This document shows, one piece after another, positions 4,077-31,797 of a stretch of 33,191 nt of DNA. This stretch comes from Phoronis australis. Lineage: Eukaryota > Animalia > Phoronida. The position numbers and the translations under genes are program-made. Location: positions 264,562 through 297,752 of the forward strand of contig NMRA01000366.1 of assembly GCA_002633005.1 (NCBI GenBank). Reading direction: 5' to 3'. Position 1 is the stretch's first letter. Every line of letters begins with the position of its first letter. The notes beneath the pieces were generated by a model that worked only from the letters and a program-made list of their open reading frames with translations, did no database searches and had not been told where the DNA came from.

Positions 4077-6784
4077 TCAATGAAAGATAGATGGTATTTT
4101 GACTTGATGAATCTCGTCTTTAAAATCGTCCTCTTTTTCTTTTTCCTTTTCTTCCGCGTGATAAGCCCACTCTGGCTCCATTTCGGACAACTCTTGGCGC
4201 TTTAACCGCTCCCGCTCTTCTTTTTCTTGTATAGCTCGCTTTTTCTTCTCAAGCTCTTTGTCTACTTTTGACTTCCATTTTTCAGCGTCTTTTAGATTTT
4301 GCTCTGCAAGTTTCTTGCGCCTTTCCTCCTCTGCTTTCAACCGTTTTTCCAAGTCCTGCTTCTCCTTTCTGTATGTTTTAATGGCTTCATTATCAACATC
4401 ACCTTGTGATGATGTCAGAAGCGCCCTAAGCTTAAAAAGTCTTTTCTTCTTTTGGTCCGCTGATTCCCCTTCCAAGCTATCGAGGTCACCAATTTGATAC
4501 TCTTTAATTCCACGAGCCTTCATAAGTTTTGCCACTCTTTTCCGTTTGTCTGCCTTACTTTCGCCGTCTAGTGTTGCCCATGATCCAATGCTAAACTGAT
4601 CGGCATCCATTTTGCTTGAAGTGCTCTCCTTTGCATATTTCTTTCTCACGTCTATGAAACGATACATTTTGTCTAAATACGATTCCCCTGCTAACGAGTC
4701 TAAATCGCTTTCATTGTACTTGACGCCTTTCTTTTTCAACATGTTCGTTATACGAGCTTTCTGTTGCTGGCTACTTTCACCTTTCAACAAAGTCCACGAA
4801 CCAAGCTCGCTGCTCAAAGCGCCGGCACCGGCTAATAACCCGTAATTGGCTCTCATTTTATGCAGCCTAACTTTCATTTCATGGCGTGTTTCTCCCGCGA
4901 GAGCCTCCAGGTCGTGTTCGTCAAATTTCAGTTTTCGCATTTGCATTTTCTTTGCTACCCTTTCCCTTTTCGCCTTCAGACTTTCTCCAGGCAAAGACGC
5001 CCAGGACCCTATGTCCTCTTCGCCCGATAAACCCATAGTTTGTCTGAGGAGTACGAGCCTTTCTATTCTGGCAAGGTGTGTTTCATCTCTCCTGTGATCT
5101 AGAACTCCGGTATCAAAATTACTAAATCCAATTTCTTTTAGTTTTTTCGATATTCTTTGCTTCAATTCATCGATAGTTTCTCCGTTTAGAGACGTCCATG
5201 ACCCCAATTCTCCCCTTGTTGTCAATCCGTATCTCTTCCTCAAGGCCACTAGCCTATGCTTCTTTTGTTCGGAAGTTTCACCAGGAATGTTTTCTAGTTC
5301 AGATCTGTCAAATCCTTTAATGCCTCGAGCATTCAGTTCATTTGCGACCCTGGCTATCTTTTTCTCAGGTGACTCGCCGTCTAGTGTTGCCCAGGATTCC
5401 ACGCTCCCATCATCGTCTTTCAGCGCCGGTGCGTTGTGAGCTGTCGACAGTCCATAATCAGACCTAAGGTCAATCAATCTGGCTTTTTTTTCGTCCGCTG
5501 TTTCATCCACTTCGCTATTCAATTCGTCAGAGTCGAACGACGAAAAACCCCTTTCTCGCATTTGCTTGGAAATGCGTGCTTTCTTTTGCTTTGCCGTTTC
5601 TCCTGGTTGCGTACCCCATGAACGTAAAGACCCTTCACCTGTACGGTGATGATGGGATTTGTTTTCAGTTCGTTTTGAGTAAATAAGATATCCACAGCAC
5701 ATGAGTAGTAGAATTCCAACAGCTCCAGCTGCTATCATTATGTACATAGTATAATCGCGTTTCTCATGTTCTCCATGAAACTTTCCTGCAATTGGATCAT
5801 AACCTTCAGTCCAGGTTCCTGTTTTGACATCAAACTCTTTGTGGTAATTTCCAGTTACAGGGTTCCAACCCAACTTCCATTTATTCTGACTCCAGTCAAA
5901 CATCCCAGCAGAATTGGGCGCCGTATTTGGATCTGCATAACCGTCTTTCCATCTTTGGTTAATAGGATCGTATCCAGGAAACCATTCACCATTAGTTCCA
6001 AACTGGTTGTTAAATCCTTCTTTCCATCTGCCGTTCATGATGTCCCAACCCGGGTTCCATTGATTAATTTCGTACAAAAAACCAGGGGAATACCTTTTCG
6101 TTTTGTCACTTGTACCTCTGTTAATTATAGGGCTTTTATATCCCGGCTCCCACTGCGAAGTTTGCTTGTTGTATCCTGGTGAAAATACTTTCAAAACGTC
6201 GTCATAGCCCTCCGATGATGTGTCTCCTTTCTCGCTGCGAGAAGCCAAATCCCAACCATCCCGCCACTGATTTTTCGCAAAATCGAAGCCCAGTGAGTTA
6301 CCTGGATTGTAATAATTGCCCTGCCATTGACCTTTGCTAGGATCGTACCCAGGATACCAATCCGCGAACTGTTCGTTCCAATTATCATTCATCCCTCCAG
6401 CTTCCATTGGTGATACGCCTTGAAAAGTGTTTGTACTGGGATTGTACCCGTCTGTCCATCTGTTTCGAGACCTACTCCAAAAGGGATTCCAAGAGTTTTT
6501 TACCATGTTAAACCCAGGATACAGTTCCCCTGTTTTGGGGTCAAAAGGACTCTTGAAGCCAGGTCTCCAAGCCCGGTTATCCTTATCATATCCTGGATAC
6601 CACCTCCTAGCAGGAACATTCCAACCTTCGCTGTACCTGTTTTCTTCTGGGATATATCCTTCTACGTATTCGTTATTACTGCCGGGTTTGATAGGAGAAT
6701 AAAAGTTGGGCTTCCATCGCTTTTTTACGTTGTCCCATCCGATAACGTAGTTGTTGGCTTTTGTGTTCCACGTGTTTTTTTCGT
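4077..6784 (-). CDS. Coding exon 4 (2.7 kb, terminal): extracellular aromatic/Gly repeats, TM helix (about 5747-5679), six cytoplasmic repeats, coiled coil
   Basis: Uninterrupted 902-codon frame. Acceptor ttgtcatttcag|AC is phase 1. TM segment MYIMIAAGAVGILLLMCCGYLIY is followed by basic KR. The ORF track's start at 6821 is a non-ATG codon inside the intron. Confidence 0.93.
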
Positions 6785-9700
6785 CTGAAATGACAATCAA
6801 TAACGATGTTGATGTAGACAAGGAAGGAAATTTTCGAAATGTCGGTTTTAGACAATGCTATCCATCTGGATGAAGCTGCAGTAATGTTAATAGTGTTACT
6901 GTCCTAGCTTTAAGCATCCTATTTACATGTAACTACGTTTTTCTCAACCTTTTCCACTTACACTAAATGTGCATGTGCTTGAGAACCCTATCTGTTTTGT
7001 TTTTAACTCTAGGTGAGGATTTATTTCCCACAAGGTTCAAAAGTAAACTTCTTGGCATTCAAGAGATGAGAGGCAAACAAAGTTCGTCAATAGATCTTTT
7101 TTCAATTGATTGAATATGACACCAGATTCACATGGGCCATCTGAAAGTTACTGGCCTTGCTGTAAATCCGCTGGCCAAGGGCCACCGGGCTGTTATGTTA
7201 TGGACATACACCCACGACGTCATAGACAGTAGTAACACAAGACGTGTTATGCAAGGCACAGTCCTCTGATAAGTTAAATGAGTCTCCGGACATAACATTT
7301 TGACCCACAAAGCTTGAAGCACTAACTTTGAATGAAACACGAAACACTAGTTTAAAGTGTTAAGAGACTCTTCAATTTTTCATATTTTAGTGGCGAGTTC
7401 TCGGATTACAAAGGCTTAAAAGAAAATCTCGGATGCCTTTTTGTAGGTGAGTGTAGCAGATAGATAGATTTGCAAGTGCGAAAGGTTTCAACCAGAAAGA
7501 GCAATCTATGTGAAACCCACTTTCTAAAAAATAAACACTTTATTTTTTTTTCTGTAATGCGCTGAGATAACTAAGGGTGTTTAAAGGCAAAGGCAACATT
7601 TTTCATGTCATCTTCAGTAAAAATAAGGTTCGTTAATTATCTCGGACATGTTTTTCAGTTAATTACGGCTTCTCGCAATGTAATTAATTACTCGTGCCAT
7701 ACTCCGGTAGTGACGTTTAGGGAATCGAGAACTACGCGCCAATTTTGTTCTGCGTTCGAGTTTACTGTGAGGATCTGTATCACCACTTCCTATCTATGAG
7801 CATTCTCCGACAAGTTAGGTTGTTAGAGAACTCAGATACAATGCATTTAGGGATTGTTTAGATTGTAGTAACTTGAAAATGGCTGGAGTCTCCTACCCAT
7901 TTCACAGTGACCGTAGTGACGTGAGTGACGGAGAATTTTGTTCACAGCAGTGGTGACGAAGAAGTTCTCATGGACAGTCAGTGGGTGGGTATACGTTTGA
8001 GCCCGAGTATAATGAGGCAGATTACGCACGGCCACAGGCAGCTGTTCTGAGGAATGACAAAGAGACTAAGGACAGACGTGGTGGAATGCCTTGGTGCAAA
8101 TGCACGGTGTGCACTGTTATGCCGACCTCAATGGAATGGCTATGCTGTTCAGAGTTCGACGAGGCCAAGCGACTACTGGAATCTGTATATACTTTCCATG
8201 TACCTTGATTGACACAGCGCATCCTGACTTAGGTGTCCATTTGAATGCTGGTGTGCTAGGCACCTTCTTTAGAAGTCACAGAGCTAACTCAAGGCGGTTT
8301 TTTTCCCATTCAGTGACTTTTCCAGACGTAGAGGGTGGTTAGCGTGTGATAACATTTGGCTTCTTTGTTAACAGCCAAGCACTGGTATGATAACAGGTAG
8401 GCCAATTATGTACCAGGCTTATTACAAACCACGTGTGAACACAGTCAAACCCAGAGCGGAATGGAAAACGTTCGGAAAGAATAGAATGTCATGACTTCGG
8501 TTGTAGCTAGGCGATTGTGGCGATTCAAAAATTAAACATGATCACTATTTGACGAGGATTTCAGAAATATTATTCGTTTATGTTCAAATACGTTATAACT
8601 TAACGTTTATTTTTAACAGCACGGCCCAGTCAGGCTACTGAGATTGGAGATTATAGAGCAATCATCGAACAAAAGAGAGCTGGCCCTCCAACCATGAATG
8701 CCAGAATGGAGTTAATCACTCGTGTAAGATATTGGCTACAGGGGCCATCTTCCCAACTTGTTATTGGGCTATAGAGTCGAACAAGTTGGGAGCAACGAGA
8801 ACACGCCATCATGTGGAGGAGATTTCCCAATGCAAAGGGTCTGGCGGAAGCCGTACGCGGGATGCGTAATTAAAAATATAGCCATTCTGATTGTAAATCC
8901 TGCTAATATGTCCAAATTTGTTACCCCACCATAGTTTCCTCGCAGCATTTAGCCTACGGCAGTAGTGTATTCCTCAAGATTTCACCTTCCGGTACTTTTA
9001 TGACTAAATAAATGCATCCTACTTCAGGGTTTTTGGTGCGAAATGGACGCCGCCACAATTTTGTTTTTCATTTTTTTTTTCAGGCGTTGTTTTGCAAGGA
9101 AATTCATCAATTCAGCGTACATCTCATTCGTAATCTGACGGTAGAAAATGCTGGCCACACACTCGGTAATTCTCCACCGCTTTGTAGGTTGCGTGGACGG
9201 GTAACGCTGCGTTCTTCACACGAACGAGTCAAGTACGGGGACGTGTGTAATTTTTCGGAAAGCGATGTAATGGTACACCCAGAGTGCGCGTGAGACGATA
9301 ATGAGTACATCCCGGTACGCAGCAACTGTGCGACATATTGACTGACTCGTAAACATGCAACGACCAAACTTAACACAACCGAGGTAGAAAAATGACTGAC
9401 GCGACAGCTCACACATTCAGACTATATGAAAAGAAAACTACCGTAATTATTGACTACCAAAACGTCACTTCCGGAGTTTGGCATGAGTGATTAATAGCAT
9501 TACGAGCAGCCTTAATTAACTGAAAATTATGTGTGGGATAATCCCCTGCCATATGCCACACGGTGGGTTGTGCAGGAGGAAGTTGACAACATGTTAAAGT
9601 GTGGAGTCATAGAACCATCTGATACACCCTACAATTCCCCGGTGGTCTTAGTGAAGAAGGACGGTTCAAATCGATTCTGCATCGATTTTCGTCGTTTGAA

Positions 9701-12700
9701 CGCCATTACCAAGTTTGACTCGGAACCGATGGGCAATCCTGATGACATCATGGCTGAGATCAGCAAAGACCAGTATTTTACGAAGATTGATCTAAGTAAA
9801 GGGTACTGGCAGGTCATTGTCGCCGAAGAATCACGACCCAAGACCTCGATTGTAGTACCAAGTGGTTGCTATAAGTTCGTAAAGATGCCATTTGGTCTGG
9901 TAAATTCGGCAGCGACCTTCAACCGCATGATGAGGAAGATGTTGGCAGAAGCACATAATACAGAGCATTATGTGGATGACATTCTTTGCCGTAATAAGAC
10001 CGGGACTGAACACCTTGCCACCTTGCGAGACACCTTCCAATGTGTGCGAGAGGCTGGACTAACGATTCGACCCACCAAGTGTTCGGTTGGATCTCGTTCC
10101 GTCGATTTCGTTGGACGTGGTTGGTGAAGGACACCTGGCAATGGATGAAGAAAAGCTGGGACGTATCCGAGATGCACCACGACCCAGAACGAAGAAACAA
10201 GTTCGTTCTTTTCTTGGGTTGGCTGGATACTGCAGGAAGTTCATCCCAAACTTTGCTGAAATTGCCGTCCCGATTACTGAGCTCACAAAGAAGAAACAGC
10301 CTAACAGCGTGCAATGGGAAGAAACTCAGCAGCATTCATTCGACACTCTTCGAGACCTGCTGACGAGAGCACCCATACTGAGATTACCTGATTTCAGTAA
10401 ACCTTTTATTGTTCAGACTGATGCGTCAGATACTGGTATAGGTTGTATTTTGTTGCAGGAGTATGATGATGGCAGGTTCCCAGTGGCATGTGCTAGTAAG
10501 ATATTGTTACCTCGAGAACGGAATTACTCCGTCATAGAGAGGGAATGTTTGGCTATTGTATTTGCCATCAGAAAATTTGCAAAGTACTTTTACGGTAAAG
10601 AATTTATCATTCATACTGACCATCAACCCGTGGCTTACATTCAAAAAAGTAAGTTAGTCAATGGACGCATCATGAGGTGGGCCGTGTTTTTGCAAAACTA
10701 TCGATTTAAGGTTGAAGCTATCAAAGGCTCAGAGAATGTTGGTGCCGATTACCTGAGTAGGTGAGAGTATTGAAGATTCATGGAAATTGGGTAATAGATC
10801 TAAGTGTTAATCAATATTTAAGTCTTCCATGTTGAGAAAATCTTAACAAGTATTTTCTTGAGGAGGGGCTTATTGTCAGAATAAATATTGATTGAGTAAT
10901 TAGTAAGAATAGATCCATTTTAAGTTGCCCATAATTTGTGAATATGTACTTTTAAATCATGGGGTCAGACTTGTTGACATGTATTTTAACGTCAAAATCT
11001 ATTTTTAGATGGTGTTTACAACTTTGGGTTCTGAAGTCAAAGTACTCTAGAGATTCTAGAATATTCTGAAAACAAATTGTAACAGCCAATAATATGAGTG
11101 GGTATGATCATGTGATTTTATTAGCCAATCACTAAATAAGTAGAATGTTACAATATGGGCTGAAATTAACAAGATAATTAGATGCGCTATAGTAGTTGAA
11201 GCATAAAGACTTGCTACAGTGTACAGAAGCAATTGTACAACAGAGCAATCTCGTGGAAGATTCTAGAAAGGATCTTGGCAAGGGCAAGGGTTAACGAACA
11301 GGACGTTATCTAAGAGCTTGTCACTTGCATTGTGGGTAGTAAGATACTACTTGAAGTCTTGCGTCATCAGCCAGAGACTGTGACCAGCAAGAAGAGTCGC
11401 GGGTAGAAGAAATTGCCTGCAAGTGTTGCATCACCAGACACGGTGACCAGCAAGTACACTGTCGCTATACAGTGTGTGTAGTTCGAAGATTCACCAGCAG
11501 GACAGACATCCAAAAAGTGGAGAGTCCTAGCTTGGATAGCAGATAAGACACTTGATTGTTTTGGTTGTTTGATTAAAGTAATCTTTAAAGAGGGCGCTAG
11601 CGTAGTTACTCTTTGTAGTAGATTACTTAATTAACAATAGGTTTCATTTGTCTAATTAGGGGTTATCATATAATAAATTAATTACTGGATTTGATCGTTC
11701 ACTCTCCATCGACGCACAATCTCAAAGCATAGCTACCTTTTAAACAAACCCACAGTCAATCGTCTGACACTGTCATTTAAACAATATTCCTGGCCAGGTG
11801 TACCTTTCTTAAAAAGTCAAAAGACTTGGGAGTGTTTAGAAAAAGATATTGTGAATCAGAGGAGACCATAATTCGTGCAAACTAGTCGTAGGTTTTGGCG
11901 TAAATCGCTCTTTAGACTCTGAGTAAAAAGCGTCCTCAGTTACGACATTTAGTGAAATGGTTCACCTGGGTTCTGCTTTACTAAGACTTCAATGTAGAGT
12001 TTCTGTGAGTGGAGTAACTTATAGTTTACGCGAATGAGTGTACAGTACCCGAAGTTCACACTCGATCAGCCCTAGATTAAATCCAGAAACCAAACGTAAA
12101 TCTCCAGCTCTCGAGTAAAAATCGAGACTTCGAGCTCAGACTAGAACTTATACTCTATAATTTTAAGTTGCAGTCATCCACCAAGCCATAGTGTAGAAGA
12201 ATTATTGTATTCTAGTACACAATAATAGAACCTTACCTTGAGTAGTACATGCATAAAAGAAAGTGAGAAAAATACTTTGAGTACGTTTTCGAGTAACAAG
12301 TTTAGACCCCGGTTCCATGCCTTTTAGTTTATTGAATTCTATCTCTAACATTTGAAATGACCGGATGTAGTTTCAAAGTAAATGTTAGTATTTCCTGAGA
12401 GCAATTTCAACCTGAATTTTTATCTGAGGTAATCGAAATCGCATATTGGTTTTGGTGGCGCCATTTTAAGTCCCACTAAGCAAATTAGATCAACGAGTTG
12501 GCATGACATATCGTCCACGTGATTTGGCCTCCGAAAACCGCTAAGTGTCTCAATGCATGCCCGTACCCAACATGCGACTTGTGGGCGCAGCTACAGGAAG
12601 CGGACCAAACATGGACTTCAAAAAATCGATGTAAACTACTACCCTCAGTCACGTGATTAACAGGGTTGAAACGATACATTGTACATCGCGAACTGATATT

Positions 12701-15700
12701 TGCCAGTTTCTTGGTTTCAACATCGCAGCTCAAAATGCAACAGTACAAGTTATCGTGACTTTCTTGTGTGCATAAAAAGAAGCAAGACAACTAAAGTAAT
12801 TTGACTAATATCTTGCATTAGAATGGGAGAGCTGTTGGGCTATTTCAGTAGGGGTGGGGCCTATTACTTTGTTTGCCCCACCACATTACATATTTAAAAT
12901 AGTGAATGAATTAGTTTCAAGGTGTTACGGGCCTAGTCACACAAGTAAAGCAAATTGCATGATGCCTGGTGTGTCTTCGTATGATTCCTGTCACATGATT
13001 GACCATAGGAAAGGATGGCATTCTATGTTCTTGGACTCGAATGTCATATCATTGGAATTACGCTTTCTTTGAGTTGTTTACTGGCCACATGTCATACCTT
13101 ATTTAGTCATCTGTATCGTCATTCTCCGGTGTATATCGTCGCTCTCCGGTGTATTTATATACCTCATTCCCTTATCTTATAGTTGCATATAATTTCATTC
13201 TCTCGGTGTATTTTGTTTTCTCTTACATAAGACACTTAGCCATTTTGTCTATTTATTTTGTCCTTTTCATTGATCATAATTTTTATATTTTAGCCTTATA
13301 TTATGTTTAGTCTTATCCGTTACCGCCACTACACTAGGGTGAGCTCACACCTGGCAGTAACCGTACCTCCCGTCGCCCTTCAGCCTTGGCCTCTGGAGTC
13401 AGGGTCGGGGTATCCGGCTGACAGTGTTTTGTAAGAATGTAAATCTATTCAATACAACTATTTACCCCTTTCTTATTTGGTTTGTCTCCGCGGATGGGTA
13501 TGAGCTCTCTTACACCATCTCTTGTGGCGATTTTTATTGGCCATCTTTCCAGTGATTATTATTTTACGTGTATATATTATTTTGCGTTCATATTTTGGAA
13601 CGTTATGATGTCACAATAAATTACCTTTATTTCGCCTATATACGGTATCCTTTATATCTCTGGAAATTGAGCTTGCAACGCAACTACCATTTTTGGGTCA
13701 TGTGTCGAACATAAAATGTATGTCTCAAAAAGATATTCATGATACGTTCTAGTGTAATACTACACTTACCGCCACATAAATGTCCTGTGCAATCCTCATC
13801 CTCCACCTCTTTTTTCATCAACTTAAGCGGACACTGAGTCGTTGTGCAGAAGATTCGGTGTCGTTCTATTTTACAATCCAGTTTACACGGCCCATATGCT
13901 GACCACCTGGTCCAAGCGTTGGCTGGAAGGAACGCAAGAAAATAAATAGCTTCATTTTGCCAATTGGTGATCTTCAATGTATTCCATGCTTTGTCATCCG
14001 TCGTTCTTTATACACAACAGATTTAGTACCCTCTGGGTGTTTCTTTTTTTCTTTTTTTGATTTACCGAAGCACACATTTAAACCTATTTTCGTATTGAAG
14101 CTTTTCAGTCTGCTTCACCAATCGTGTAGCGAAAATAGAAACAATGCCTGCCTGTGTGACAAGTGCTTGCAGTCCCCTTTTGTATTGTGGGTATTGTACG
14201 TTCACAAGTGGCATCCATTTGTTACGTCTTAAGCGATGTTGAAAATAAAATTTAGTTTAAAGGTGTGTCCTTTGTGTAATGATCTTCGTTAAGATTATTT
14301 ATCTCCTAAAAGCAAGTTCATGGTACTTTTGATTTAATTTGTTTACTACAAAATAGTGTGGAACTTTCTAGAAGACTGAGGTCAGAACAGTGATGATGTA
14401 ATTTGTTTACTACAGTATAGATTGGAACTTTCTAGAAGACTCTAGCATGACAGTGATTAATGCAGTCTGGAATAATCTAGAGACTAGTACATGTTTGTAG
14501 AATAATTGGGTAGGTTCCAGAAAGTTCTGGTATGTGCTTGAATTGATGAAAAGTTCCAGAACATTGCATTAGGCTATAAATACACAAGCACGGGTTTGTG
14601 TTAGTCAGATTAAGTCAGTTGAGTCCAGGAAGATCAAGTCGGGAGATCAAGAGAAGATCAAGTAAGTTCAAGAAATTTAATCAGAAGAACTACAGTGAGT
14701 TGCAGTGAAGAGAATCAGCAGTTACAGCGATGGCCAGTAAGGAGCCAGCTATAGAGACAGCAGGTTATTGAACCAACGAGTGTTACAGTTGCTGGAAGTA
14801 TCTCAAAGTTCATAACAAGTCAAGGCTTCGCAGCACTGGCTGGAGCATAAACAGACATTACGTCGGACGTTTTGTTTGAGTAGGCTTGTGAACGTACGGT
14901 CGGGATTAATAAAGGATTAACTCGAACCAGTCTTCAGTCAATCTTCGCACCGAAAGCTATTAGCACCGGTCTGTAACAACCTGCGCCCACCCAGACACGG
15001 GGAAAAACGTGGCAGTGTGCATATTATTAAAATTCGAAGAAAGACATGAATTCATTATCAAAATGCAAAACGTGTGCCAAAATTGCATATTAATACTAGT
15101 TTTTGTAATAAGTGCCACACGGTGGCCTCATTACTTGAGAATAAATTGATTGAATGGGAGTGATTGGTGACTGTCTTGTTAGAAATGCACCTCTTATGGA
15201 GTCGCAGTCGTGTAAAATCTGGTTGGACAGAATTCCTTGGGTTTTGAATTTTACTCAAATTTATTTCTCAAAATGACATCTTGACAATACTTGTAGACAT
15301 TTTCAAATTTGATACATTGTGTGTGACTGACATATTGCGAAAAATTGCATGAAAAAACTACCAGGGTTTACAATTCAATTTTTTGTGAGAACTGTTCACA
15401 TAGGATTGACATTACTTGAAAAGTATGTGTGCCCTTTTAGTCCATATTTTCGTAAAGTAGGGTAGCGAACACAACTTGAAGATGCATTTGTTGAGTAGCT
15501 AATTCTTGAAAATTTGACGAACCTACTTATATATCTTGGGAGTGAAGTTAAGTCCCACGGTGAGAGAATTTGGCTTAACAATAATACTAGTAAAACACGA
15601 AAATCGTAAAATGGTTGGAAAAAGTCTTAAAGGACACCAAATCCGGTTTAGGTCCGTTAAAATATATTAAAAACGACATTTGCATTCAGTTCCTTGAAAC

Positions 15701-18700
15701 GAAATAAGGCTCTATGAAGTGCGTCCAGGGGGTGCTCGGGGGGCTCGGCCGAGCCCCCATTTTGCGAAGATGGGCCAAAAGGCCCGAACAAAAGTCCACT
15801 AAAAGGGAGGAACTACCAAAAGCCGGCTGAGTACGCGCATGTATAACATCCATTTACTTTTGCAGCTTACGAAATTTAAATGATGGATGATACCATTCTT
15901 GGGGTTCTGAATTACGTCAAGCTATGTTGGCCACGTGTGCACGATCTCATTTCAGTAACATGCAGAGGCGTAGTTGCTTCTGTGGGTCTGTGGGTCGGCA
16001 GTATGACAATCTCCAATAATATTTCTGACTTTGTTGGGAAAAGAAAAAAAATAGGCGCACTAAGAGGAAGTTGATCTACAAGAGGTCCCTCACAATCAAT
16101 TTTTTTCACACGTGTTGTTCTGCCTTTCACCCAAGAAAATAAACGGCACAAAAGGCTATCCTAAATTTTGGTCGAACTCTGTCAATCTCATTATCGAGGT
16201 AGGCCTACATGTATTGAGTAAGTTGCGGGAAGTATTTTTGTGTACGGCACAACTCAAGTTAGAGGAGCTTCACTGACACGAAAAACGTTTGTTCTGTGAT
16301 GGTATTACTGCGTCATTTTATTCCCCCTTGAGAATGAAACAAGTTTGTTTCGAAATACCATGTCTCTTGGTCACTGGGTCAGTTGCTTTACCTATATTCT
16401 GTTGAGTGTCGAACTTCGTTCCGGGGATACGAAGGGAACGGGATAAAGGTTGTGAATAACGACAATTGTCGTGTATCCAATCAATTTTAACATGCATGTT
16501 AACTCAAGCCCTAATTTTTTTAAAATCTTGCAAAATGCTAGCATTTCCTTTTTATGCTTTTCTCTACAATTCAGTATTTCTGCGAATGCAATAACAGTCT
16601 TGATCTTCTCCGCCTGTCGCGAGAAACCTCCCGAGGGTATTACACCAGTATTTGAGATACGTACATTTTACGATGACTAGAACTTTCACGTGTCACGTGA
16701 CACTCACCTAGGCAAACAGCCTCGTTGCAGTCTCTTGTATCCTTGTTTGCTCCGGAACACATTCCGGGCCGAGGGCAGACACGGTGCCTGGTTTTCTCTC
16801 CACCGCCGCAAGGTCTGGTGCAGGGTCCAAACTCTCCCCATTTACTCCAATTGAGTGCTGTTGACATAAAGAAATTTAATTAATGAGATACCGTACCGTC
16901 TGCTATTTTGCTCACATGACTACGATGTGACCAAGTCAGATGCAGTTCGGAGTTCGAGTCAATAACACGCCTTCAATTACACTCTGACTCTGATAAGAAT
17001 TTTTTAAAATGAAATTAGTTCCCTTTTGAATGGGGCTATTCGGAGAATTCTCCTCGCCGTGTCGCTGCTGTACTAGTGGTGATTGAATTGCGCATGCGTG
17101 GCTGTCTGCATGTAAACAACTGGTAAAAGATGGAATTTTTATCAAAATACGTCGTCGCGCTAAGCCTTATTACTGCTAATTTCCCTGTTGCAAGTCTTCG
17201 AAAGATGGACACAAATTCCCAAAAGACCTAAGGTTACTATATTCGTGGACAATTGCGGTCAACAGCTGAGGGTCAACTAACTGACAAAAAGTGTGTAGAT
17301 GCTGAAGCCCCGTGTGTGCTCTATGATTATGCAGTTCAATTCGGAGACTACACAACATTACTTAGTAAGTTTTTAGCAATCAGTTTCTATCAACATCGCT
17401 CGGTGATGTTATCCCCTCCAGTTACCCCACTGAATAACAGGTTTATTGAGTGGAACTAAGTGTTTCTTTTTGGAAACTCACCCGATGCCGGGTAGGCGCT
17501 AGCAGCACATATTCATATTGTCCTGGGTGAGAGTGCTCCCAAAATAAGAGGTGTATGGTACGTGATGCACAGAAGTCAAGAGTGACTTTTTCACAGCAGT
17601 TTCTCTTCAAAATTATGCTGTTTCCAATAAAATTCTCTAGATGAGTGAGTTTCCTTATTTTATCGTGAACCCCACCCCCAGGACTACCAGCTCAGTCATC
17701 GAATTAACATGGATAAGCCTTAATTCAGTAAATGTCGTAACATTGCATTGGAAAAATTCGACACCTAGAATGAATTTTACTTGCTGAGATCAAAAGCACA
17801 TTTTAAGTGTCATGAAAAATACACATTGTTAAATCAGTTTTAGCCCGTTTCACATATTTTAATTCAGATATTAAATAAGACTTGGGTACAAAGGTTATTA
17901 GTTTCTACACATAAACATGAACATGAAACGTCAAGTATGTTCTGCCTTACAAAAGTAGTTTTGTCTTGTCTTTTCTTTTACAATTTGCTAATATTTCTAT
18001 TTTGTTACAGGCAAGAAAAAGCAACTGAAACCAACCGCCTGACCATCTATTTTACCGTTGGACAAAGTGAAAAGCAATCCTTCAGCAATAACCTGAGAGA
18101 ATTGAGCGTAATTCAGAAATTCAGCACCTGATATGCCTGATTATGGACTCCCTCGCAATGTTGTTTCTTTCTGTGCTTTTTCAGTTTGCCATTTGTTTTT
18201 AAATACACTGATAATTGTTTATTCTCGAATCTTGTGCATAGCAGATTCTTATCCANNNNNNNNNNNNNNNNNNNNNNNNNNNNNNNNNNNNNNNNNNNNN
18301 NNNNNNNNNNNNNNNNNNNNNNNNNNNNNNNNNNNNNNNNNNNNNNNNNNNNNNNNNNNNNNNNNNNNNNNNNNNNNNNNNNNNNNNNNNNNNNNNNNNN
18401 NNNNNNNNNNNNNNNNNNNNNNNNNNNNNNNNNNNNNNNNNNNNNNNNNNNNNNNNNNNNNNNNNNNNNNNNNNNNNNNNNNNNNNNNNNNNNNNNNNNN
18501 NNNNNNNNNNNNNNNNNNNNNNNNNNNNNNNNNNNNNNNNNNNNNNNNNNNNNNNNNNNNNNNNNNNNNNNNNNNNNNNNNNNNNNNNNNNNNNNNNNNN
18601 NNNNNNNNNNNNNNNNNNNNNNNNNNNNNNNNNNNNNNNNNNNNNNNNNNNNNNNNNNNNNNNNNNNNNNNNNNNNNNNNNNNNNNNNNNNNNNNNNNNN

Positions 18701-21700
18701 NNNNNNNNNNNNNNNNNNNNNNNNNNNNNNNNNNNNNNNNNNNNNNNNNNNNNNNNNNNNNNNNNNNNNNNNNNNNNNNNNNNNNNNNNNNNNNNNNNNN
18801 NNNNNNNNNNNNNNNNNNNNNNNNNNNNNNNNNNNNNNNNNNNTTTCATGAAATCAACTTGAAGGGACTTCGTGAAGGTTAAGAATTACCTCACCATGCT
18901 CTTTTCCCCAAACATGTAGTATTACCTGTTATTTCCACACATTCAGTTGTACCAAATATTACAACCCCCCATGCCAATCCCCCCTCGGGACCTGAATAAG
19001 TAATTTAACAAAATGACTTTAAAAACAGCTGTTCGTTTTCAAAGGCTTTGTTCGTTGTCTACAATATTGAAAGTAGGCGTTGACAACATATCTGCACTGG
19101 ATGGGAAGATCTCGTTGGTTAGCTGCACTCAAATGCTAAAAACCAATTTTTGTCCATTCAGGGACGGTGCAGAAGCGATGCATATCTCCTCTGCACGGTA
19201 CAAGCCTTCAAACCTAAAAACCAAAGGTTACGTGAAAACAGACGTGATAGATTTCCATTTCAACGTGTAATAGATTTCCAGAAGACATATGATAGGGAGT
19301 AAACAAATAGTCTAATGCAATGGATATTTATCACTCACGTACCCTTTGCCATTGGGCTTGGATTGTAATCTTAACTCATTAACCTGTATCGAGTTGACAG
19401 CATAAACATTCAGCATTGATGGATGTAACTGTCACTGATAAACTTTTAGAAATCATTCCAAACAATAATAATGCTTTGATGTACGAAAAGATTCCGATTG
19501 CTACGTCAAGTATCGTATCACATATCACAACATACAAAGATTAACCAGACTCTCGCTGGCGACTGCCTGCCGCGAAGTCGACGTCGGCGAGTACCTCAGT
19601 TAACAGGCATCGGTAGAATAATCATGGAATAATCGTTAAAATAATTTCAAACCTTACCTTTGTATGAGGTCGTGCTTACTTCCTCTCATATAGAAGCACC
19701 CTTTTTACGCAATCTCAGATTCAGTTGGCACGGCTGCAAGCCATTTCATCATGTATTTAAAGGGCTCGCGAAATCGAGGCTGTTAATCTATCACCACTAG
19801 TACACCCACGCCCTCTAGTTATTGTAGATTTTCCGAATAGCCCCATTGAAGAAGGTTACGGAGGTAAGTAGCTTACTCATTTATTTTACTGTGATGAAAT
19901 CAAGAGGATCGTATGAAAAAACGGGAAAACGAGTGGTTCGAATGCCACCAGCTCAGAGGGGAGCCATAGCTTATTGGCCAGTACTGAACCCTACCAGCAC
20001 TGCCTCCCGTATCAGAAATTGCCCGTCATCACTGCTCCCTGCCAGCACTGCCCGCTGATAGCACTGCCACATGTGCACTACGACATCGTTTTTGGATTTT
20101 TTGTATGCATCGTCAAAATTAGTGTAGTGAACAGATGGAAGATATCATATTCCAGGGATAGAGTTCTATGATGTCAAATAAGTCCAGTATTGTTTCCTGC
20201 TCAAAACGCTTCTAGATTGACTGGGGGTCTTCGTACACTAGCAGTGACGTCAGAGTGTGAGCCCTGGGAACCAGGCGTGCGTTCAGTAGACGCTAGGACC
20301 TACGCTAGGACCTAGCTAAAATCAAGTCAAAGTCACGTGTTCTCATTTAAAATACACGGCAATATCTCTCGTAATCTCGCAAAGTCTTGCTTTTTAGCGA
20401 GGTCCTAGCGTTACTGAACGGGAGGCAGGTTAAGTCCAGTATAGATGCAAAATGTACTCCATGTTTTAGCTACTTGATGACTTGTTTAAGTTACATAGCT
20501 ATTGGGTGTTGTTTCTCAAATGTTCCAATTTTACATGCGCGGCTATCAAAATAGGGCTTTCTGTTCTGTGGGCCTGTGTCTTATCGTGGCGGAACAGCTT
20601 GTGTATCTAAGCGACATCTAGAGCTATACTGGCGGGAGTCATATACTTCCAGAAGGGTCACCCATGCCGGGCAGGTTTAAAGGCAGAGATCAGATCAAAC
20701 ACACCCTTTAATCTCCTAAGGTTGGTTCGCAATGGCAACGGTGGCTGCCAGTCTCTCGTCGTCCTGGTCGCCTTGAAAAGCGGAACGATGAGTAACTATT
20801 ATCTTCCTTCATTTGTACACGTATCCATCGGCCCAAAGTACAACAAACAAGCAAACAAGATCATTGGAGTGCTATGCTCACTAGTCAGTAGTACACAAGC
20901 TGTTCCGTTTTTTAGATGCGTAGTATACATCAATTCCTAACCACGGAGTCATCCAATTACATAGAGGAAATTTTATTATACTTAACAGTATTACTTGATA
21001 AGGATGACTACAACAGGAAGATGACTGATCTACTATCTAGCGGGTAGTAGGCCCTACAAGGAAGTAAAATATGACAAGACCAAGAGAGTAGAAAGAAAAA
21101 TCAAATCCCTCCTGAAAACTGTAGACAGTTCATTACCACGTGACACACTCCAGAGAATCAACCCAAACAACACAAAAGCCCCGCACATGTATGGTAAGCC
21201 TGAGATACACAAATCTGATATGCCGATGAGACCAATTATAAGCAACATTGGTTCTCCTTGCCACCAACTAGCTAGATTCCTCAACAACATCATATCCCCA
21301 CTAGTTGGAAAAACTGACTCGTACGTAAAGGACTCGAAGCACTTCGTGTCAATGTTGTCATCAGTCAGCATTACACCAAATGACACCATGGTGAGCTTTG
21401 ATGTCGAAAGCCTATTCACATGTGTACCAACAGCAGAGGTTCTCCCATTACTCAGGTCAAAGTTAGAACATGACCACAAGCCATCAGAGGATGTAAACCT
21501 CCCAATAAGCTCCATTCTGGAATTAGTGACATTCTGTGTCAATACCACCTACTTCCAATACCAAGACAAGTTTTACGAGCAGACACAGGGAATGGCAGTG
21601 GGTTCACCACTATCACCAGTCTTAGCTAACTTTTACATGGAGTGGTTTGAACAAACAGCTCTCAGCTCAGCTAACAAACCCCCGAAGATGTGGAAACGAT

Positions 21701-24700
21701 ACGTTGATGACACATTCACAATATTCAGCCAAGACTCAGAAAATCCATCAGACTTCCTTGACCATCTGAACAGCATAGCGCCTACAATTAGATTCACAAT
21801 GGAGGAAGAGACAAATAACAGTCTCTCATTCCTAGACGTACTAGTGACTTGTTGTTGAAGGACAGTTAGAAAAGGCGGTCTACTATACGAAGACCCACAC
21901 AGGACGATACCTCGACTTCAACTCCAACCACACCAAAGGAGTCAAGAAGGATATAATAAAATGCCTTGCATCAAGATCGCAAGAAATCTGCAGTGATACT
22001 TCACTCCAAGCAGAAATGATCAACCTGACGGAGACATTCGAAAGAAATGGCTACCTAAGGGATTTCATCAAGTCGGCTTTAACATCGCAGAAGAAAGACA
22101 AAGTGGCAGAAGAACGCCCACTGCAGACTATGTTCTTACCGTATATACCCGGAATAACCGAGAACCTAGGACGCATATGTAGAGAATTTAAAATAAGAAC
22201 GGTGTACCGCCGCTCAGACACACTGGGTCGGCAATTGACAAAAGTCAAACCAAGAACTTACATGGGAAAAAAGTAAAATGTCATCTATGAAATCCCATGT
22301 GAATGTGGTGAATCGTATATCGGTGAAACATTAAGACCGCTGGAGACAAGAATTGCTGAGCATAAGAGGTGTTGTAGAGAAGGTAATACCTCATCAGGAG
22401 TAGCAGAACACATGTCGTCGAAACAACACAACATCCAATGGAATAACATCCGAATACTTGACAGTGAAACAGGTTGGACCAAGAGAAAGATCAAGGAAGT
22501 CATGTACATGAAAGTACAAGGCAATGTCTTCAGTTAGTCAAGCAAACAACCAAGTGACACCTGGCTCAGTCTACTTAGGTAGGTTTAAGTATGATAAAAT
22601 TCCCTCTAAGTAATTGGAAGACTCCGTGGTGTAGTGGTTAAGGTGCTGGACCCGAATTATCTGTAGTTTCAGAAGTCGTGGGTCCAAATCCTGCCTTGCA
22701 CAAAAAAAATCACACCATGAGTGTACCACGTATCCGTGCTCGTTCTTCTAAGAACGCGGGAACACCTGACGATGGCCGGAGAAGAGTCCGACCGAAACGT
22801 CGTGACTGTGTATATAGACTAGAGGTCGGTGTAAATAGACCAAGAGATTTTAATAATAGTCGTAGTATGTATATTTCACAACTGAGATATCGGGATTACA
22901 TAACAGTCTATGAAATTTAAACAAAGAAGGACTTGCCCAGAGGCTCTCACTTATTAAGTTAACTCTGACTTCGGAAAAAGTGTCGCAAACTAACAAAAGG
23001 TAATATTCATCCTCAACACAATTCCTCGAGCATAATGTACACACTCTGTCTTGACATATAACATTTACGTGACGACCAGTTCCAACTGCCAGTCTATGGT
23101 TTGCACATCGAAAACGTGTAAAACTTTGCACGAACACTCTTGAAAGATTTTCAATTTCTAAATAGTTTTCATGTTTACCGAAACCTTTAAATTTTTGTAG
23201 TAGTTTAACTTAGAATCAACATCGGATTGCCATCTTTGCAAAGCACAGTCCTTAACCCGTTGAGAAAATATTTACAAACGACTCTTGACACGTGACTCCT
23301 TGGTTTACCCAAACATCATAGAAACCATACATTGACAATAAATTGCGGACTGAGCTTGCCCAATTACACATATGTCTACCATTTTCATCTAGTCTGTACA
23401 AAATGTTGTAAGCAGCCCTTAGATAACGTCCCTGTGGCATGTTCAAAATTTTAAATCAGTATTTGAAACAGCTAACAAAGTATCTCGTAAACATAGGGTA
23501 TCTGCCATTTTCACTCAATGCTGCAGCGTTAGAGCAAGAACTGCCAAGTCCCAGGGTCCATTTACAAAATTTTAAATGATTTTTTGTAAACACTCGTATT
23601 CTTTAAAATCCAAAATCTCGGCACCATAACACAATGTTGGGTACACCAGTTTATCAAATAACTGAAAGGCAAATGATGGGGGCATATCGCGACATCTGCG
23701 CCTGTAGTTTCAAAACACGTGATGCAGTTTTATTTGCTTGACAAGATAGTTTTTGTCGTTTTCGCCCATGACAATTTAGGTGTGATAAAAACACCAAGCT
23801 ATTTATAATGAGATACAGCATCAACCTGCTGTTTGTTAGAAGGACTACGTACACGTCGTTTTTCCAGCCTTCGCATTGGTCTGTTGTTATCACGTGCCTC
23901 GAGTTTGGTCAGCTCTCGGCTCTTATAGGCTGATGATTGTCACGTGTCTTTAGGGGCGTTTTTCTTTGTTATTGTAACCCCGCTTTCAATTCACGTCGTT
24001 CCGGCCACATTGTCGTACGTCAAAAACTCATTCAATTTTCCCACCCTCTTCCTCCCAGTTTTCGTCATTCTCTCGTACTTCCACGTGGCCGGCGCTTTTT
24101 AATGCCCATCTTACCAGAGATTACCTATTATACTTATTTACGTATATTCATTTTATTGTAATTGTACTAGTCATAATAAATGACCTTATATCGCATACAT
24201 CAGTCTCCTTTCATCTCTGGTAACGAGTTTGCGACGCACGTATCATTTATCTATTATCCGCGACATATGTCGATCATAAAAAACATTTCTCATAGTGTCT
24301 TAAGGGACCTCCATTTCTAAACACAATTATTTTGGTTTCCTTTAAATTCACAGCCATAACCCATGAATCTCAATAATCATTGAGACAATTCAACATACGT
24401 TACAAGTTAGACGCTGTTAGAAAGCACAAAACCATGTCATCTGCATGTAACAGTGAATTAATATTTGTAACATGCTCATCTAAGTAGATGCTATTCATGT
24501 CACAACGTGAATTGAGTTTTTCTAAAAACTCATTGAGATACAAAACAAATAGCAGATGGCTTATCATACATCCTTGACGAGTACCAATAGTGCAATTAAA
24601 TAAGTCTGTTAAACCATCACGTGTTTTAACACATGATCTCCACTTGCTATAAATGTTCATTGATCGCAGAATTGATAATGTATTACCATGAAAATTAATT

Positions 24701-30700: not shown

Positions 30701-31010
30701 AATGACATATTGCGTTACGCATTCGCCAACGTCCAATAAAAATGTAGCACTATATGTGTTTCCAAAGTCATTTGTAGAAGTAGTAGTATTAGTAGTTAGT
30801 AGTAGTAGCAGTAAAAGTAGTTGTAGTATTAGTAGTTAGTAATAGTAGCAGCAGTAGTATTAGTAGTAGTAGTGGCAGTAGCTGTAGTAGTAATAGTAGT
30901 AGTAGTCCTTTTCGTTGTTTCAAAATCTTTTCAATGATCTTACCTTCGGTGTTAAAACTATTCGCCAAAATTACAATAGCGAAAAAAGTTAACGAGTCCA
31001 ACTGCCGCAT
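4077..31010 (-). CDS. Four-exon gene, join(31010-30944,16857-16708,13922-13770,6784-4077): 1025-aa type I membrane protein (signal peptide, 2x TSP1, aromatic/Gly repeats, TM, cytoplasmic repeats, coiled coil)
   Basis: All three introns are GT-AG and phase 1. Exon lengths 67+150+153+2708 = 3078 nt give one open frame from ATG to TGA. The domain order is coherent for a type I membrane protein. Extra phase-1 exons cannot be excluded. Confidence 0.82.
7969..8800 (+). pseudogene. Decayed KolX / P2X7 C-terminal (ballast)-like Cys-rich protein
   Basis: YTFEPEY, WCKCTVCTVMPTSMEWLCCSE, then after a frameshift TAHPDLGVHLNAGVL. This matches the remembered pattern YxFEP..WCxCxxCxxMPTxxExxCCxE..CITxHPxF..LNxxVL. 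Confidence 0.75.
9110..9336 (-). pseudogene. THAP zinc-finger N-terminus of a transposase (not in the ORF track)
   Basis: ATG at 9336: MSHSCCVPGCTHYRLTRTLGVPLHRFPKNYTRPRT*LVRVKN...YRVCGQHFLPSDY. This is a C2CH THAP signature with a stop at the conserved Trp. Confidence 0.88.
9535..10764 (+). pseudogene. pol: Gypsy pol remnant: reverse transcriptase plus RNase H
   Basis: ORFs 9531-10127 and 10087-10764 join across one frameshift (VDFVG/VVGEG). The stop comes immediately after RNase H. Confidence 0.93.
10874..11769 (+). repeat. 3' LTR (896 bp), preceded by a polypurine tract at about 10860-10868
   Basis: Ends TGTCAGA...TCTGACA form a perfect 7-bp inverted repeat. GAGGAGGGG lies just upstream. 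AATAAA at 11672. Confidence 0.88.
13770..13922 (-). CDS. Coding exon 3: divergent thrombospondin type-1 repeat
   Basis: AWTRWSAYGPCKLDCKIERHRIFC...C...C...C has WxxWS, RxR and 6 Cys. Acceptor ttcttgcgttccttccag|, donor GCG|GTAAGT, 153 nt, phase 1-1. Confidence 0.88.
14220..14978 (+). mobile_element. Probable solo LTR
   Basis: Ends TGTTAC...GTAACA. TATAAATA near 14575 and AATAAA near 14908. Internal ~65-bp tandem duplication at about 14336-14460. No clean TSD. Confidence 0.65.
15714..15842. mobile_element. MITE-like fragment related to 3571-3727
   Basis: GC-rich hairpin GGGGGCTCGGCCGAGCCCCC and the shared end GGCTGAGTACGCGCATG. Confidence 0.45.
16708..16857 (-). CDS. Coding exon 2: thrombospondin type-1 repeat
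   Basis: LNWSKWGEFGPCTRPCGGGEKTRHRVC...C...C...C has the WxxW, CxxxCGGG and RxRxC motifs and 6 Cys. Acceptor tttatgtcaacag|, donor TAG|GTGAGT, 150 nt, phase 1-1. Confidence 0.92.
   Translation of the reverse strand, partial: HSIGVNGESLDPAPDLAAVERKPGTVSALGPECVPEQTRIQETATRLFA
17130..17362 (+). pseudogene. Decayed THAP domain of the ISL2EU-type transposase
   Basis: PYYC*FPCC, then frameshifted GHKFPKDLRLLYSWTIAVN and later VCS. This is the THAP HxFPxD...W...VCS pattern. Confidence 0.7.
18256..18843. other. Assembly gap (588 N)
   Basis: Run of N. Confidence 1.
20269..20431. mobile_element. Palindromic MITE-like element
   Basis: CGTTCAGTA(G)ACGCTAGGACCT..GCTAAAA occurs at the left and inverted at the right. 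The left arm has a 12-bp tandem duplication (ACGCTAGGACCT). Confidence 0.65.
20575..20705 (+). mobile_element. RTE-clade LINE 5'-UTR-like fragment
   Basis: TTATCGTGG..GCTTG..GAGCTAT..GGGTCACCCATGCCGGGCAGGT..CAGA resembles the conserved 5' region of RTE/BovB-type elements as I recall it. Hairpin GGGAGT-CATAT-ACTTCC at 20634-20650. Confidence 0.55.
22621..22702 (+). ncRNA. tRNA-like sequence / Pol III promoter remnant in the PLE 3' region (not a functional tRNA)
   Basis: A box TGGTGTAGTGG (22627-22637) and B-box-like GGTCCAAATCC (22681-22691) within a T-arm GTGGG/CCTGC. The acceptor stem does not pair. Confidence 0.6.
22763..22804 (+). ncRNA. Minimal type I hammerhead ribozyme
   Basis: CAC-CTGACGA-T-GGCCGGA-gaagag-TCCGACC-GAAAC-GTC-GTG: full catalytic core, stem II with one mismatch, palindromic minimal stem III, 3-bp stem I. 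Predicted cleavage after 22801. Confidence 0.85.
22870..25110 (-). mobile_element. Decayed LINE (RTE-X-like): RT and C-terminal Cys-rich domain, interrupted by an insertion
   Basis: NYRDISLL, QAGFRKGY, FIDFSKAFD, GTRQGCMIS, LLHADDMV, KETKIIVFRNGG, YK*LGV, and C-terminal FRCANHRL..GR..RVCTLC..EDEYYLLLVC. The clade label is tentative. Confidence 0.88.
23834..24265. mobile_element. ~430-bp insertion inside the LINE, possibly a solo LTR
   Basis: The LINE frame breaks between ...GPLRHYEKCF (about 24275) and QVDAVSHYK (about 23827). The insert has TG...CA ends but no exact TSD. Confidence 0.55.
25130..29990 (+). mobile_element. Near full-length decayed non-LTR retrotransposon of the LOA/R1 group (APE, RT, RNase H)
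   Basis: APE: QINLHH, LIQEP, SAYMP, NANPHH..WNSTDTNSRGE, SDHRYI. RT: FRPIT, FMDIAGAF, GIPQGG, QAYADDI. RNase H: YTDDSK, VFQAEI, SDSQAAIKAL, WVKAHVGIDSNEAADKLAK. Many frameshifts. Boundaries are approximate and ORF1 is not resolved. Confidence 0.9.
30775..30906. repeat. Imperfect (AGT)n microsatellite
   Basis: GTAGTAGTA/GCA runs about 40 bp inside intron 1. Confidence 0.95.
30944..31010 (-). CDS. Coding exon 1: signal peptide MRQLDSLTFFAIVILANSFNTE(A)
   Basis: ATG at 31010, hydrophobic core FFAIVILA, strong donor GAAG|GTAAGA, phase 1. Splicing to exon 2 creates T-E-A|L, a plausible signal peptidase site just before the TSP1 domain. Confidence 0.75.
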
Positions 31011-31398: not shown

Positions 31399-31797
31399 AA
31401 CCCATACCAAAAAAGCCTTCCTGCAAACACTTGCCGCAAGCTTGCCGCAACGTTGCGGCAAGCTTGCTGCAAAAGTTTCTGCAAACCAGCCGCAAACACG
31501 TAGAATCAACTCTGACCAAAAAGTGGATGCAAATTTCCTGCAACCCAGCCGCAAACATTGCCGCAAGCTTGCGGCATGTTTGCCGCAAACATGCAGCAAA
31601 CTTTTACCATGCAAATGAAGTTTGCCGCAAGCTTGCAGCAAACATCTCTATGTCCTTATATGGAACAGTTCCTGCAACCCAGCCGCACACATTGCTGCAA
31701 GCTTACCGCAAACATTTCTATGTCCTGATATGGAACAGTTCCTGCAACCCAGCCGCACACATTGCTGCAAGCTTACCGCAAACATTTTCATGGGGTT
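31399..31797. repeat. MITE-like repeat built from GCAAGCTTGC-type palindromes, with a 70-bp tandem duplication
   Basis: Ends AACCCAT...ATGGGGTT. Repeated TTGC(C/T)GCAAGCTT(G/A)C units. 31639-31708 is duplicated at 31709-31778. Confidence 0.75.

Follow-up and report, generated by a model that had tools for sequence, protein, structure and literature searches.

A tandem array of eleven-residue repeats, predicted to form chignolin-like beta-hairpins, in a putative thrombospondin-repeat membrane protein of Phoronis australis

Introduction

Two described systems come closest to the protein reported here, one at the level of its repeat unit and the other at the level of its architecture. The first is chignolin, a designed benchmark of protein folding; the second comprises single-pass receptors with thrombospondin type 1 (TSP1) repeats, such as MIG-21, UNC-5 and the TRAP family, in which Ig, ZU5 or death domains occur. 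Chignolin is presented, in the sections of PMC3438464 and PMC9054626 that concern its structure, as a ten-residue hairpin with Tyr2, Asp3, Pro4, Gly7 and Trp9 and a pi-turn running from Asp3 to Thr8. Hairpins of this kind are widespread: according to the relevant passage of PMC3438464, proteins contain over 13,000 that resemble chignolin. Chignolin has also been elongated stepwise into binding proteins, and this work is offered, in an extract of PMC5622108, as a model of small foldable segments becoming proteins. As for the TSP1 receptors, the pertinent part of PMC12445740 describes MIG-21 and UNC-5 as acting in cell guidance and receptor partnerships, and the thrombospondin repeats of UNC-5 are stabilised by C-mannosylation (PMC6954052, in the portion dealing with these repeats).

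Other systems share single traits with the protein. Choline-binding repeats are about 20 residues long, 14 of them in a hairpin and 6 in a linker, and the ligand is held between consecutive hairpins by aromatic residues (section on the repeats in PMC4471590). A second family, WXXGXW, is named in a table row of PMC8078820. Lastly, the STPR repeat is characterised by a Glu1/Thr-Ser2/Arg9 signature and a strict 23-residue period (PMC4856987, in the part that defines the repeat).

Here we analyse a gene of the phoronid Phoronis australis in which an eleven-residue aromatic repeat recurs head to tail next to a predicted membrane helix.

Results and Discussion

A gene for a predicted membrane protein with two thrombospondin-type modules

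The window, meaning the whole stretch of DNA that was analysed (33,191 nucleotides of contig NMRA01000366.1), is eukaryotic, intron-rich and has a G+C content of about 40%. Its longest open frame, 926 codons from stop to stop, lies on the minus strand at 4077-6857 and belongs to the gene containing the repeat array. The parts of this gene are the following:

30944..31010, minus strand: candidate first coding exon of 67 bases, with an ATG, 22 codons, a hydrophobic core (predicted signal peptide) and a phase-1 GT donor.
16708..16857, minus strand: exon for thrombospondin type 1 module 1 (6 Cys, WxxW), identified by Pfam TSP_1 and by reads.
13770..13922, minus strand: exon for a divergent thrombospondin-like module 2 (6 Cys, WxxW), joined to 6784 by a GT..AG splice.
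4077..6784, minus strand: large last coding exon of 2.7 kb (901 codons plus stop), defined by the open frame and by stranded read depth.
5772..6773, minus strand: repeat array in 9 blocks of predicted short beta-hairpins, with neither Cys nor N-glycosylation sequon.
5679..5747, minus strand: single transmembrane helix predicted from hydropathy, having two adjacent Cys close to its inner end and followed by basic residues.
4392..5624, minus strand: six cytoplasmic repeats of 65-75 residues, predicted to be helical.
4080..4391, minus strand: Lys/Glu-rich, coiled-coil-like C-terminal tail, as read from the translation.

Expression was followed in three raw-read RNA runs (X1, X2 and X3) and a small contig set from 2015 (X4). 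Stranded read depth over 4204-6538 amounted to about 84-141 in X1 and X2 and to 0 in X3 and X4. The last coding exon was transcribed and spliced in two of the three raw-read runs, with a rough RPKM of 72 in X1 and 65 in X2. The GT..AG joint between 6784 and 13770 was crossed by 100 reads in X1 and by 56 in X2, and the consensus of the loose ends of 61 reads behind 13924 was placed exactly at 16710-16730, inside the module 1 exon. These data demonstrate the splicing of three exons and an on/off pattern of expression.

The first of the two modules matched Pfam TSP_1 with an E value of 5.4e-9 (36.6 bits, above the cut-off of 21.6); the second, in which the pattern of six Cys and WxxW is present, gave a weak match to TSP1_CFP_C (E 0.029, below cut-off). 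The sequence C-x-x-S/T-C, a site of O-fucosylation, was absent from both modules. One Kyte-Doolittle peak above 1.6 was found with a 19-residue window (maximum 2.35, at residue 348 of P0001, the minus-strand translation) and corresponds to the putative membrane helix, at the end of which lie Cys362-363.

The exon at 30944..31010 ranked second in hydrophobicity among 26 candidates that combine an ATG with a phase-1 donor, themselves drawn from 332 ATGs. The candidates ranked first and third lay antisense within a reverse-transcriptase remnant and had a weak donor. This candidate exon would supply a signal peptide, and its phase fits. Between it and the TSP1 exon lies a 588-N assembly gap (18256-18843), which could conceal an exon. 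With the candidate included, the four exons total 3078 bases, that is 1025 residues plus stop, and a type I membrane protein of approximately this length is the predicted product. The TSP1 exon upstream of the array and the membrane helix downstream of it would place the array outside the cell, as assumed in a preliminary description of this DNA. That description had spoken of a Cys-free extracellular region; the 342 residues of the array are indeed devoid of Cys, but the ectodomain has 12, six in each of the two upstream exons. These thrombospondin-type exons had been overlooked, as had the six cytoplasmic repeats.

The repeat pattern is maintained at the protein level

All six units quoted in the preliminary description are present in the minus-strand translation, in the segment extending from residue 12 to residue 335 of the array translation (P0002), which corresponds to 6749-5778. 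The motif proposed there, [WYF]x[PDE]G[YFW][DN], matched strictly at 10 places rather than 25, a number that is nonetheless far above that of 10,000 shuffles (mean 0.04, maximum 2). A looser hairpin pattern, [YFW][DN]x5[WFY], gave 17 matches (mean 1.99 and maximum 8 in 10,000 shuffles), and the autocorrelation of identity, like that of aromatics, peaked at lag 11 and then at lag 22. Registration by hand yielded 29 candidate units, 20 of which keep both aromatics, so that "about 25" is a fair count when degenerate units are included. The units are grouped in nine blocks of one to four, with linkers between them; the blocks align without internal gaps and, in leave-one-out HMM tests, each of the nine outscored all reported shuffles (263-300 of 300 reported). 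Thus, the existence of the repeats is demonstrated.

Shifting the register by three residues gave a better description of the unit, G-[YFW]-[DN]-x5-[WFY]-x-x. Among the 20 core units, both aromatics are present throughout, the Gly in 15 and Asp or Asn after the first aromatic in 17; Asn or Gly occupies the seventh place in 13, Trp serves as second aromatic in 14, and the last place is taken by Pro, Asp or Glu in 14. Spacings between neighbouring aromatics of the array are 4 or 7 in 36 of 62 cases. In composition the array is rich in aromatics (63, or 18%) and in G+N+P+S+Q (40%), with I, L, V or M at 30 of 342 positions.

Nucleotide identity between the 20 core units was 49, 40 and 30% at codon positions 1, 2 and 3, respectively. 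Identical residues were encoded by the same codon in 137 of 380 comparisons between core units (0.36), a value to be set against the 0.40 expected at saturation, and no DNA tandem repeat was called over the array. With third positions only 30% identical and synonymous codons saturated, the repeat is no longer visible in the DNA, so that the pattern is an ancient one preserved in the protein. Hence both earlier statements, that the DNA has diverged under a conserved amino-acid pattern and that this reflects selection on the protein, are supported. No second copy of the array repeat or of the cytoplasmic repeat was found elsewhere within the window.

Predicted hairpins and their likeness to chignolin and Kelch

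Modelling of the 48-residue last block with AlphaFold2, the other eight blocks serving as alignment, gave a mean pLDDT of 81.8 (81.8-59.0 over five models) and a pTM of 0.48. The model contains four pairs of two-residue strands at an exact 11-residue period, a short hairpin being closed by a four-residue turn in each of the four units; it covers 48 residues and was built from a nine-row alignment of the protein's own repeats. With the whole array as a single sequence, the mean pLDDT was 37.9 and 290 of the 342 residues fell below 50. Several units (for example at 65-72, 204-211 and 246-253) again showed short strand pairs in that register, and the confidence was highest in the last block (pLDDT 58-68).

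The self-alignment model and the profile matches to Kelch hairpins presented below both support the beta-hairpin units proposed initially, and each eleven-residue unit is predicted to form a short chignolin-like hairpin. A solenoid had been suggested along with them; the 48-residue model gave no fold match that would support it, although a small model with two-residue strands could be missed. Comparison of this model with the PDB, representatives and viral models gave no significant structural neighbour, a result that shows little for so small a model, and the low-confidence model of the whole array gave none either. Prediction of a two-copy complex scored 0.00, with the alignment unused and the fold of the copies themselves uncertain, and is evidence neither way.

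In the same register, the array unit shares with chignolin/CLN025 and with the Kelch sequence YDPxxxxW a Gly, an aromatic, Asp or Asn, a four-residue turn, one residue and a Trp. Identity of the units to chignolin reaches 6/10 at best and 0 at worst; Pro4 of chignolin is kept in 6 of the 20 core units and Gly7 in 5, Asn being found at the latter place in 8 more. A profile run over 177,635 PDB sequences returned 27 rows at E<=10; Kelch, Keap1 or SAKe propellers made up 20 of them. The others were five rows for ribosomal protein S1, one for luciferase and one for the artificial AFFinger p17 (E 0.56, a weak match), which we take to be of chignolin origin. The Kelch-type matches involved the YDPxxxxW hairpin alone, aligned over 9-12 positions at about 6 bits each in the three alignments shown.

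In Kelch proteins, the hairpin occurs once per blade of about 47 residues, whereas in the array it recurs head to tail every 11 residues, some 25 times. The full four-stranded blade or propeller is absent from the array, and Pfam gave no Kelch match. Chignolin, for its part, is a designed monomer, whereas the array is a natural tandem within an ectodomain. The likeness to both is one of local motif, most likely convergent rather than homologous, and the unusual feature is the bare tandem arrangement, not the hairpin motif. Among the open-access papers listed by literature searches, none was found to describe a natural tandem chignolin array, only artificial proteins being reported.

Comparison with choline-binding, WXXGXW and other families

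The array resembles the choline-binding repeats, a LytA-type beta-beta solenoid, in having tandem aromatic beta-hairpins that are extracellular and without disulfides, and it resembles WXXGXW in its W-x-P-G-aromatic words. The preliminary description had likened it to these families and to glucan-binding repeats. Membership is not borne out: neither Pfam nor NCBIfam gave a match to any of them, and the period is 11 residues against about 20. The array has a three-residue kink where the choline-binding repeats have a six-residue linker, with no profile or fold match between the two; it contains no WxxW, and its spacing differs from that of WXXGXW. In Pfam, the array translation matched no family at E<=1, and the nine blocks searched singly produced BA14K as the sole match (E 0.039). 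The WXXGXW model included in this library (PF12779, 26 positions, cut-off 18 bits) was matched neither by the array nor by its nine blocks, and the Pfam search yielded no well-known metazoan domain that would fit. NCBIfam returned holin alone (E 0.047, far below cut-off), and PHROGs gave no carbohydrate- or choline-binding match for the array. As judged by sequence, the array is outside every repeat family tested.

These results bear on a rival view that takes up the binding idea of the preliminary description, namely a lectin-like module with multivalent binding. The hairpins would fold as predicted, but exposed Trp and Tyr faces would pack against chitin or a different glycan, or would enclose choline-type cations between units, so that the cell is fastened to a cuticle, an egg coat or microbes. 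We consider this unlikely. Aromatics do account for 18% of the array and stand at fixed places, a single layer of hairpins would have to leave ring faces exposed, and there is the precedent of a ligand bound through aromatics between consecutive choline-binding hairpins (PMC4471590, same section). However, the unit has 11 rather than about 20 residues and no more than two aromatics, which are both taken up by the predicted cross-strand pair, and neither Pfam, NCBIfam nor PHROGs pointed to carbohydrate or choline binding.

A mostly disordered sticker-and-spacer sequence seems improbable to us; in it, aromatic stickers set among Gly/Asn/Pro/Ser-rich spacers would promote condensation or the building of a matrix, either on the cell surface or inside secretory granules. 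The composition (40% G+N+P+S+Q and 18% aromatics), the pLDDT below 50 in 290 of 342 residues of the single-sequence AlphaFold2 model and a low language-model recognition score are what such a sequence would give, but the fixed 4/7 spacing, Asp or Asn in 17 of 20 units and the gapless alignment exceed the constraint that stickers need, and the pLDDT rises to 82 with self-alignment. The possibility of disordered low-complexity sequence, raised in the preliminary description as one of two findings that would overturn it, is countered by an array entropy of 4.03 bits, which is not that of low complexity, though the single-sequence model is of low confidence; the other, assignment to a well-known metazoan domain, did not come about either.

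Searches for homologues

Word-indexed searches detected no homologue with the translation P0001 (7995 candidates scored), with the profile of the ectodomain, A1 (926 candidates among longer proteins), or with the cytoplasmic profile A2 (7994 candidates). A phmmer search with 800 residues against 1.84 billion representatives yielded no match at E<=0.001, and the ESM Atlas had no usable match for either half of the protein. None of 35 pattern matches in metagenome contigs was confirmed. The phage collection contained no homologue, nor did the PDB sequences when searched with P0002 and with the last block. Coverage of invertebrate proteomes in these collections is uncertain, so that empty searches are no proof of orphan status; the protein is best read as a lineage-restricted receptor. 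A plasmid match (E 5e-3) was rejected as a chance effect of a 33-base DNA tandem repeat whose translation happens to have a period of 11. The stretch in question, at 2018-2285 of an IncN plasmid, consists of eight near-perfect 33-base copies, is unannotated and is open in several frames.

Six cytoplasmic repeats

Each of the six cytoplasmic repeats is made of two halves of about 32 residues that begin with E-[ST]-x6-R, and alignment of the six revealed invariant S-W, G-E, R, L, E, R and R columns. E1, [ST]2 and R9 are present in all 12 half-units, which scored 57-79 bits in leave-one-out tests while shuffle maxima were 5-10. The ectodomain and cytoplasmic profiles are unrelated to each other. 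Pfam matches of the cytoplasmic part to LigD_N, PBC, CheR_N and LytR_C were all below cut-off and were rejected. No family or homologue was found, and the repeats appear to constitute a second undescribed repeat family within the same protein.

The half-units have the Glu1/Thr-Ser2/Arg9 signature in common with the STPR of FMBP-1, but they are spaced 31-43 residues apart and attached to the membrane, whereas the STPR period is 23. FMBP-1 was the top of two PDB matches to the cytoplasmic profile, with an E value that is not significant (0.14). It is thus very doubtful that the protein is a membrane-tethered regulator whose cytoplasmic repeats, cut loose upon a cue to the ectodomain, bind DNA in the manner of the FMBP-1 STPR: for all the 12 signatures out of 12 and the first rank of FMBP-1, the match is weak, the spacing departs from the strict 23, the cytoplasmic region is near neutral (79 K+R versus 69 D+E in 414 residues), and the signature is of the helix-capping sort, which may originate without common descent.

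A hairpin string as a proposed stalk for the thrombospondin modules

The reading that we favour, with a little more confidence than doubt, is that the array is the outer, membrane-proximal stalk of an adhesion or recognition receptor, a disulfide-free string of hairpins beneath two TSP modules. The best reading of the array's aromatics is that they are mainly structural. Given that the array is free of Cys and has 63 aromatics but just 30 aliphatic residues, the simplest reading is one in which the rings are the core. The aromatic that follows the Gly is predicted to pair, across the four-residue turn opened by Asp or Asn, with a second one seven positions further along. Through the x-[PDE]-G kink, this second aromatic would then be passed to the first of the next unit, four residues later, and a continuous aromatic spine would take the place of both disulfides and an aliphatic core. 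Because blocks of one to four hairpins alternate with linkers, the stalk would be jointed, and its variable turn residues would face outward. Such a stalk may lift the TSP1 pair off the membrane, its turns and ring faces forming a secondary contact surface, and the TSP1 modules at the tip may bind a partner, by analogy with MIG-21 and UNC-5. Inside the cell, the six basic-acidic helical repeats and the coiled-coil-like tail could anchor or cluster the receptor.

The thrombospondin-repeat transmembrane architecture and the WxxW sequences are shared with the single-pass receptors MIG-21 and UNC-5, as these are presented in the part of PMC12445740 cited above. There is no sequence relationship with either, and the protein differs from them in having its hairpin array and its six novel cytoplasmic repeats in place of Ig, ZU5 or death domains.

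A further proposal, which we put forward tentatively and at slightly less than even confidence, is that this is a natural protein made of about 25 chignolin-like hairpins placed head to tail, the first of its kind: a new minimal 11-residue beta-hairpin repeat fold, stabilised solely by an aromatic spine, in an orphan animal receptor with a second repeat family inside the cell. If so, the 25 or so diverged natural units would be a real case of the route from segment to protein as well as a library of natural hairpin variants. The catalogue of repeats would likewise gain a class with very short units, and design would gain a disulfide-free stalk. From the standpoint of zoology, an abundant membrane protein with on/off expression and two undescribed repeat domains is a candidate for a role in gamete, larval or epithelial recognition.

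Repeats and mobile elements around the gene

Six of nine frames scanned in the window matched reverse-transcriptase (RT), RT-RNase H or endonuclease families. Together with the TSP1 exons, these elements suggest the DNA of an animal, probably an invertebrate. An LTR-type RT and RNase H remnant lies in two frames at 9516-10764 (plus strand), within the last intron and antisense to the gene. The presumed first intron contains broken reverse-transcriptase or endonuclease-RT elements at 21025-22276 (plus), 24400-24822 (minus) and 26306-29390 (plus), presumably Penelope-like and non-LTR. A trinucleotide run (30774-30906) directly follows the candidate first exon, just upstream of which nested tandem repeats of 11, 23 and 70 bases occupy 31430-31787. 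Two near-identical copies of a repeat of about 1 kb, delimited by eye, were seen at about 720-1715 and about 18845-19845, with a related inverted stretch near 8450-8600. The copy lying below the gene (about 720-1715) had reads from both strands in all four runs.
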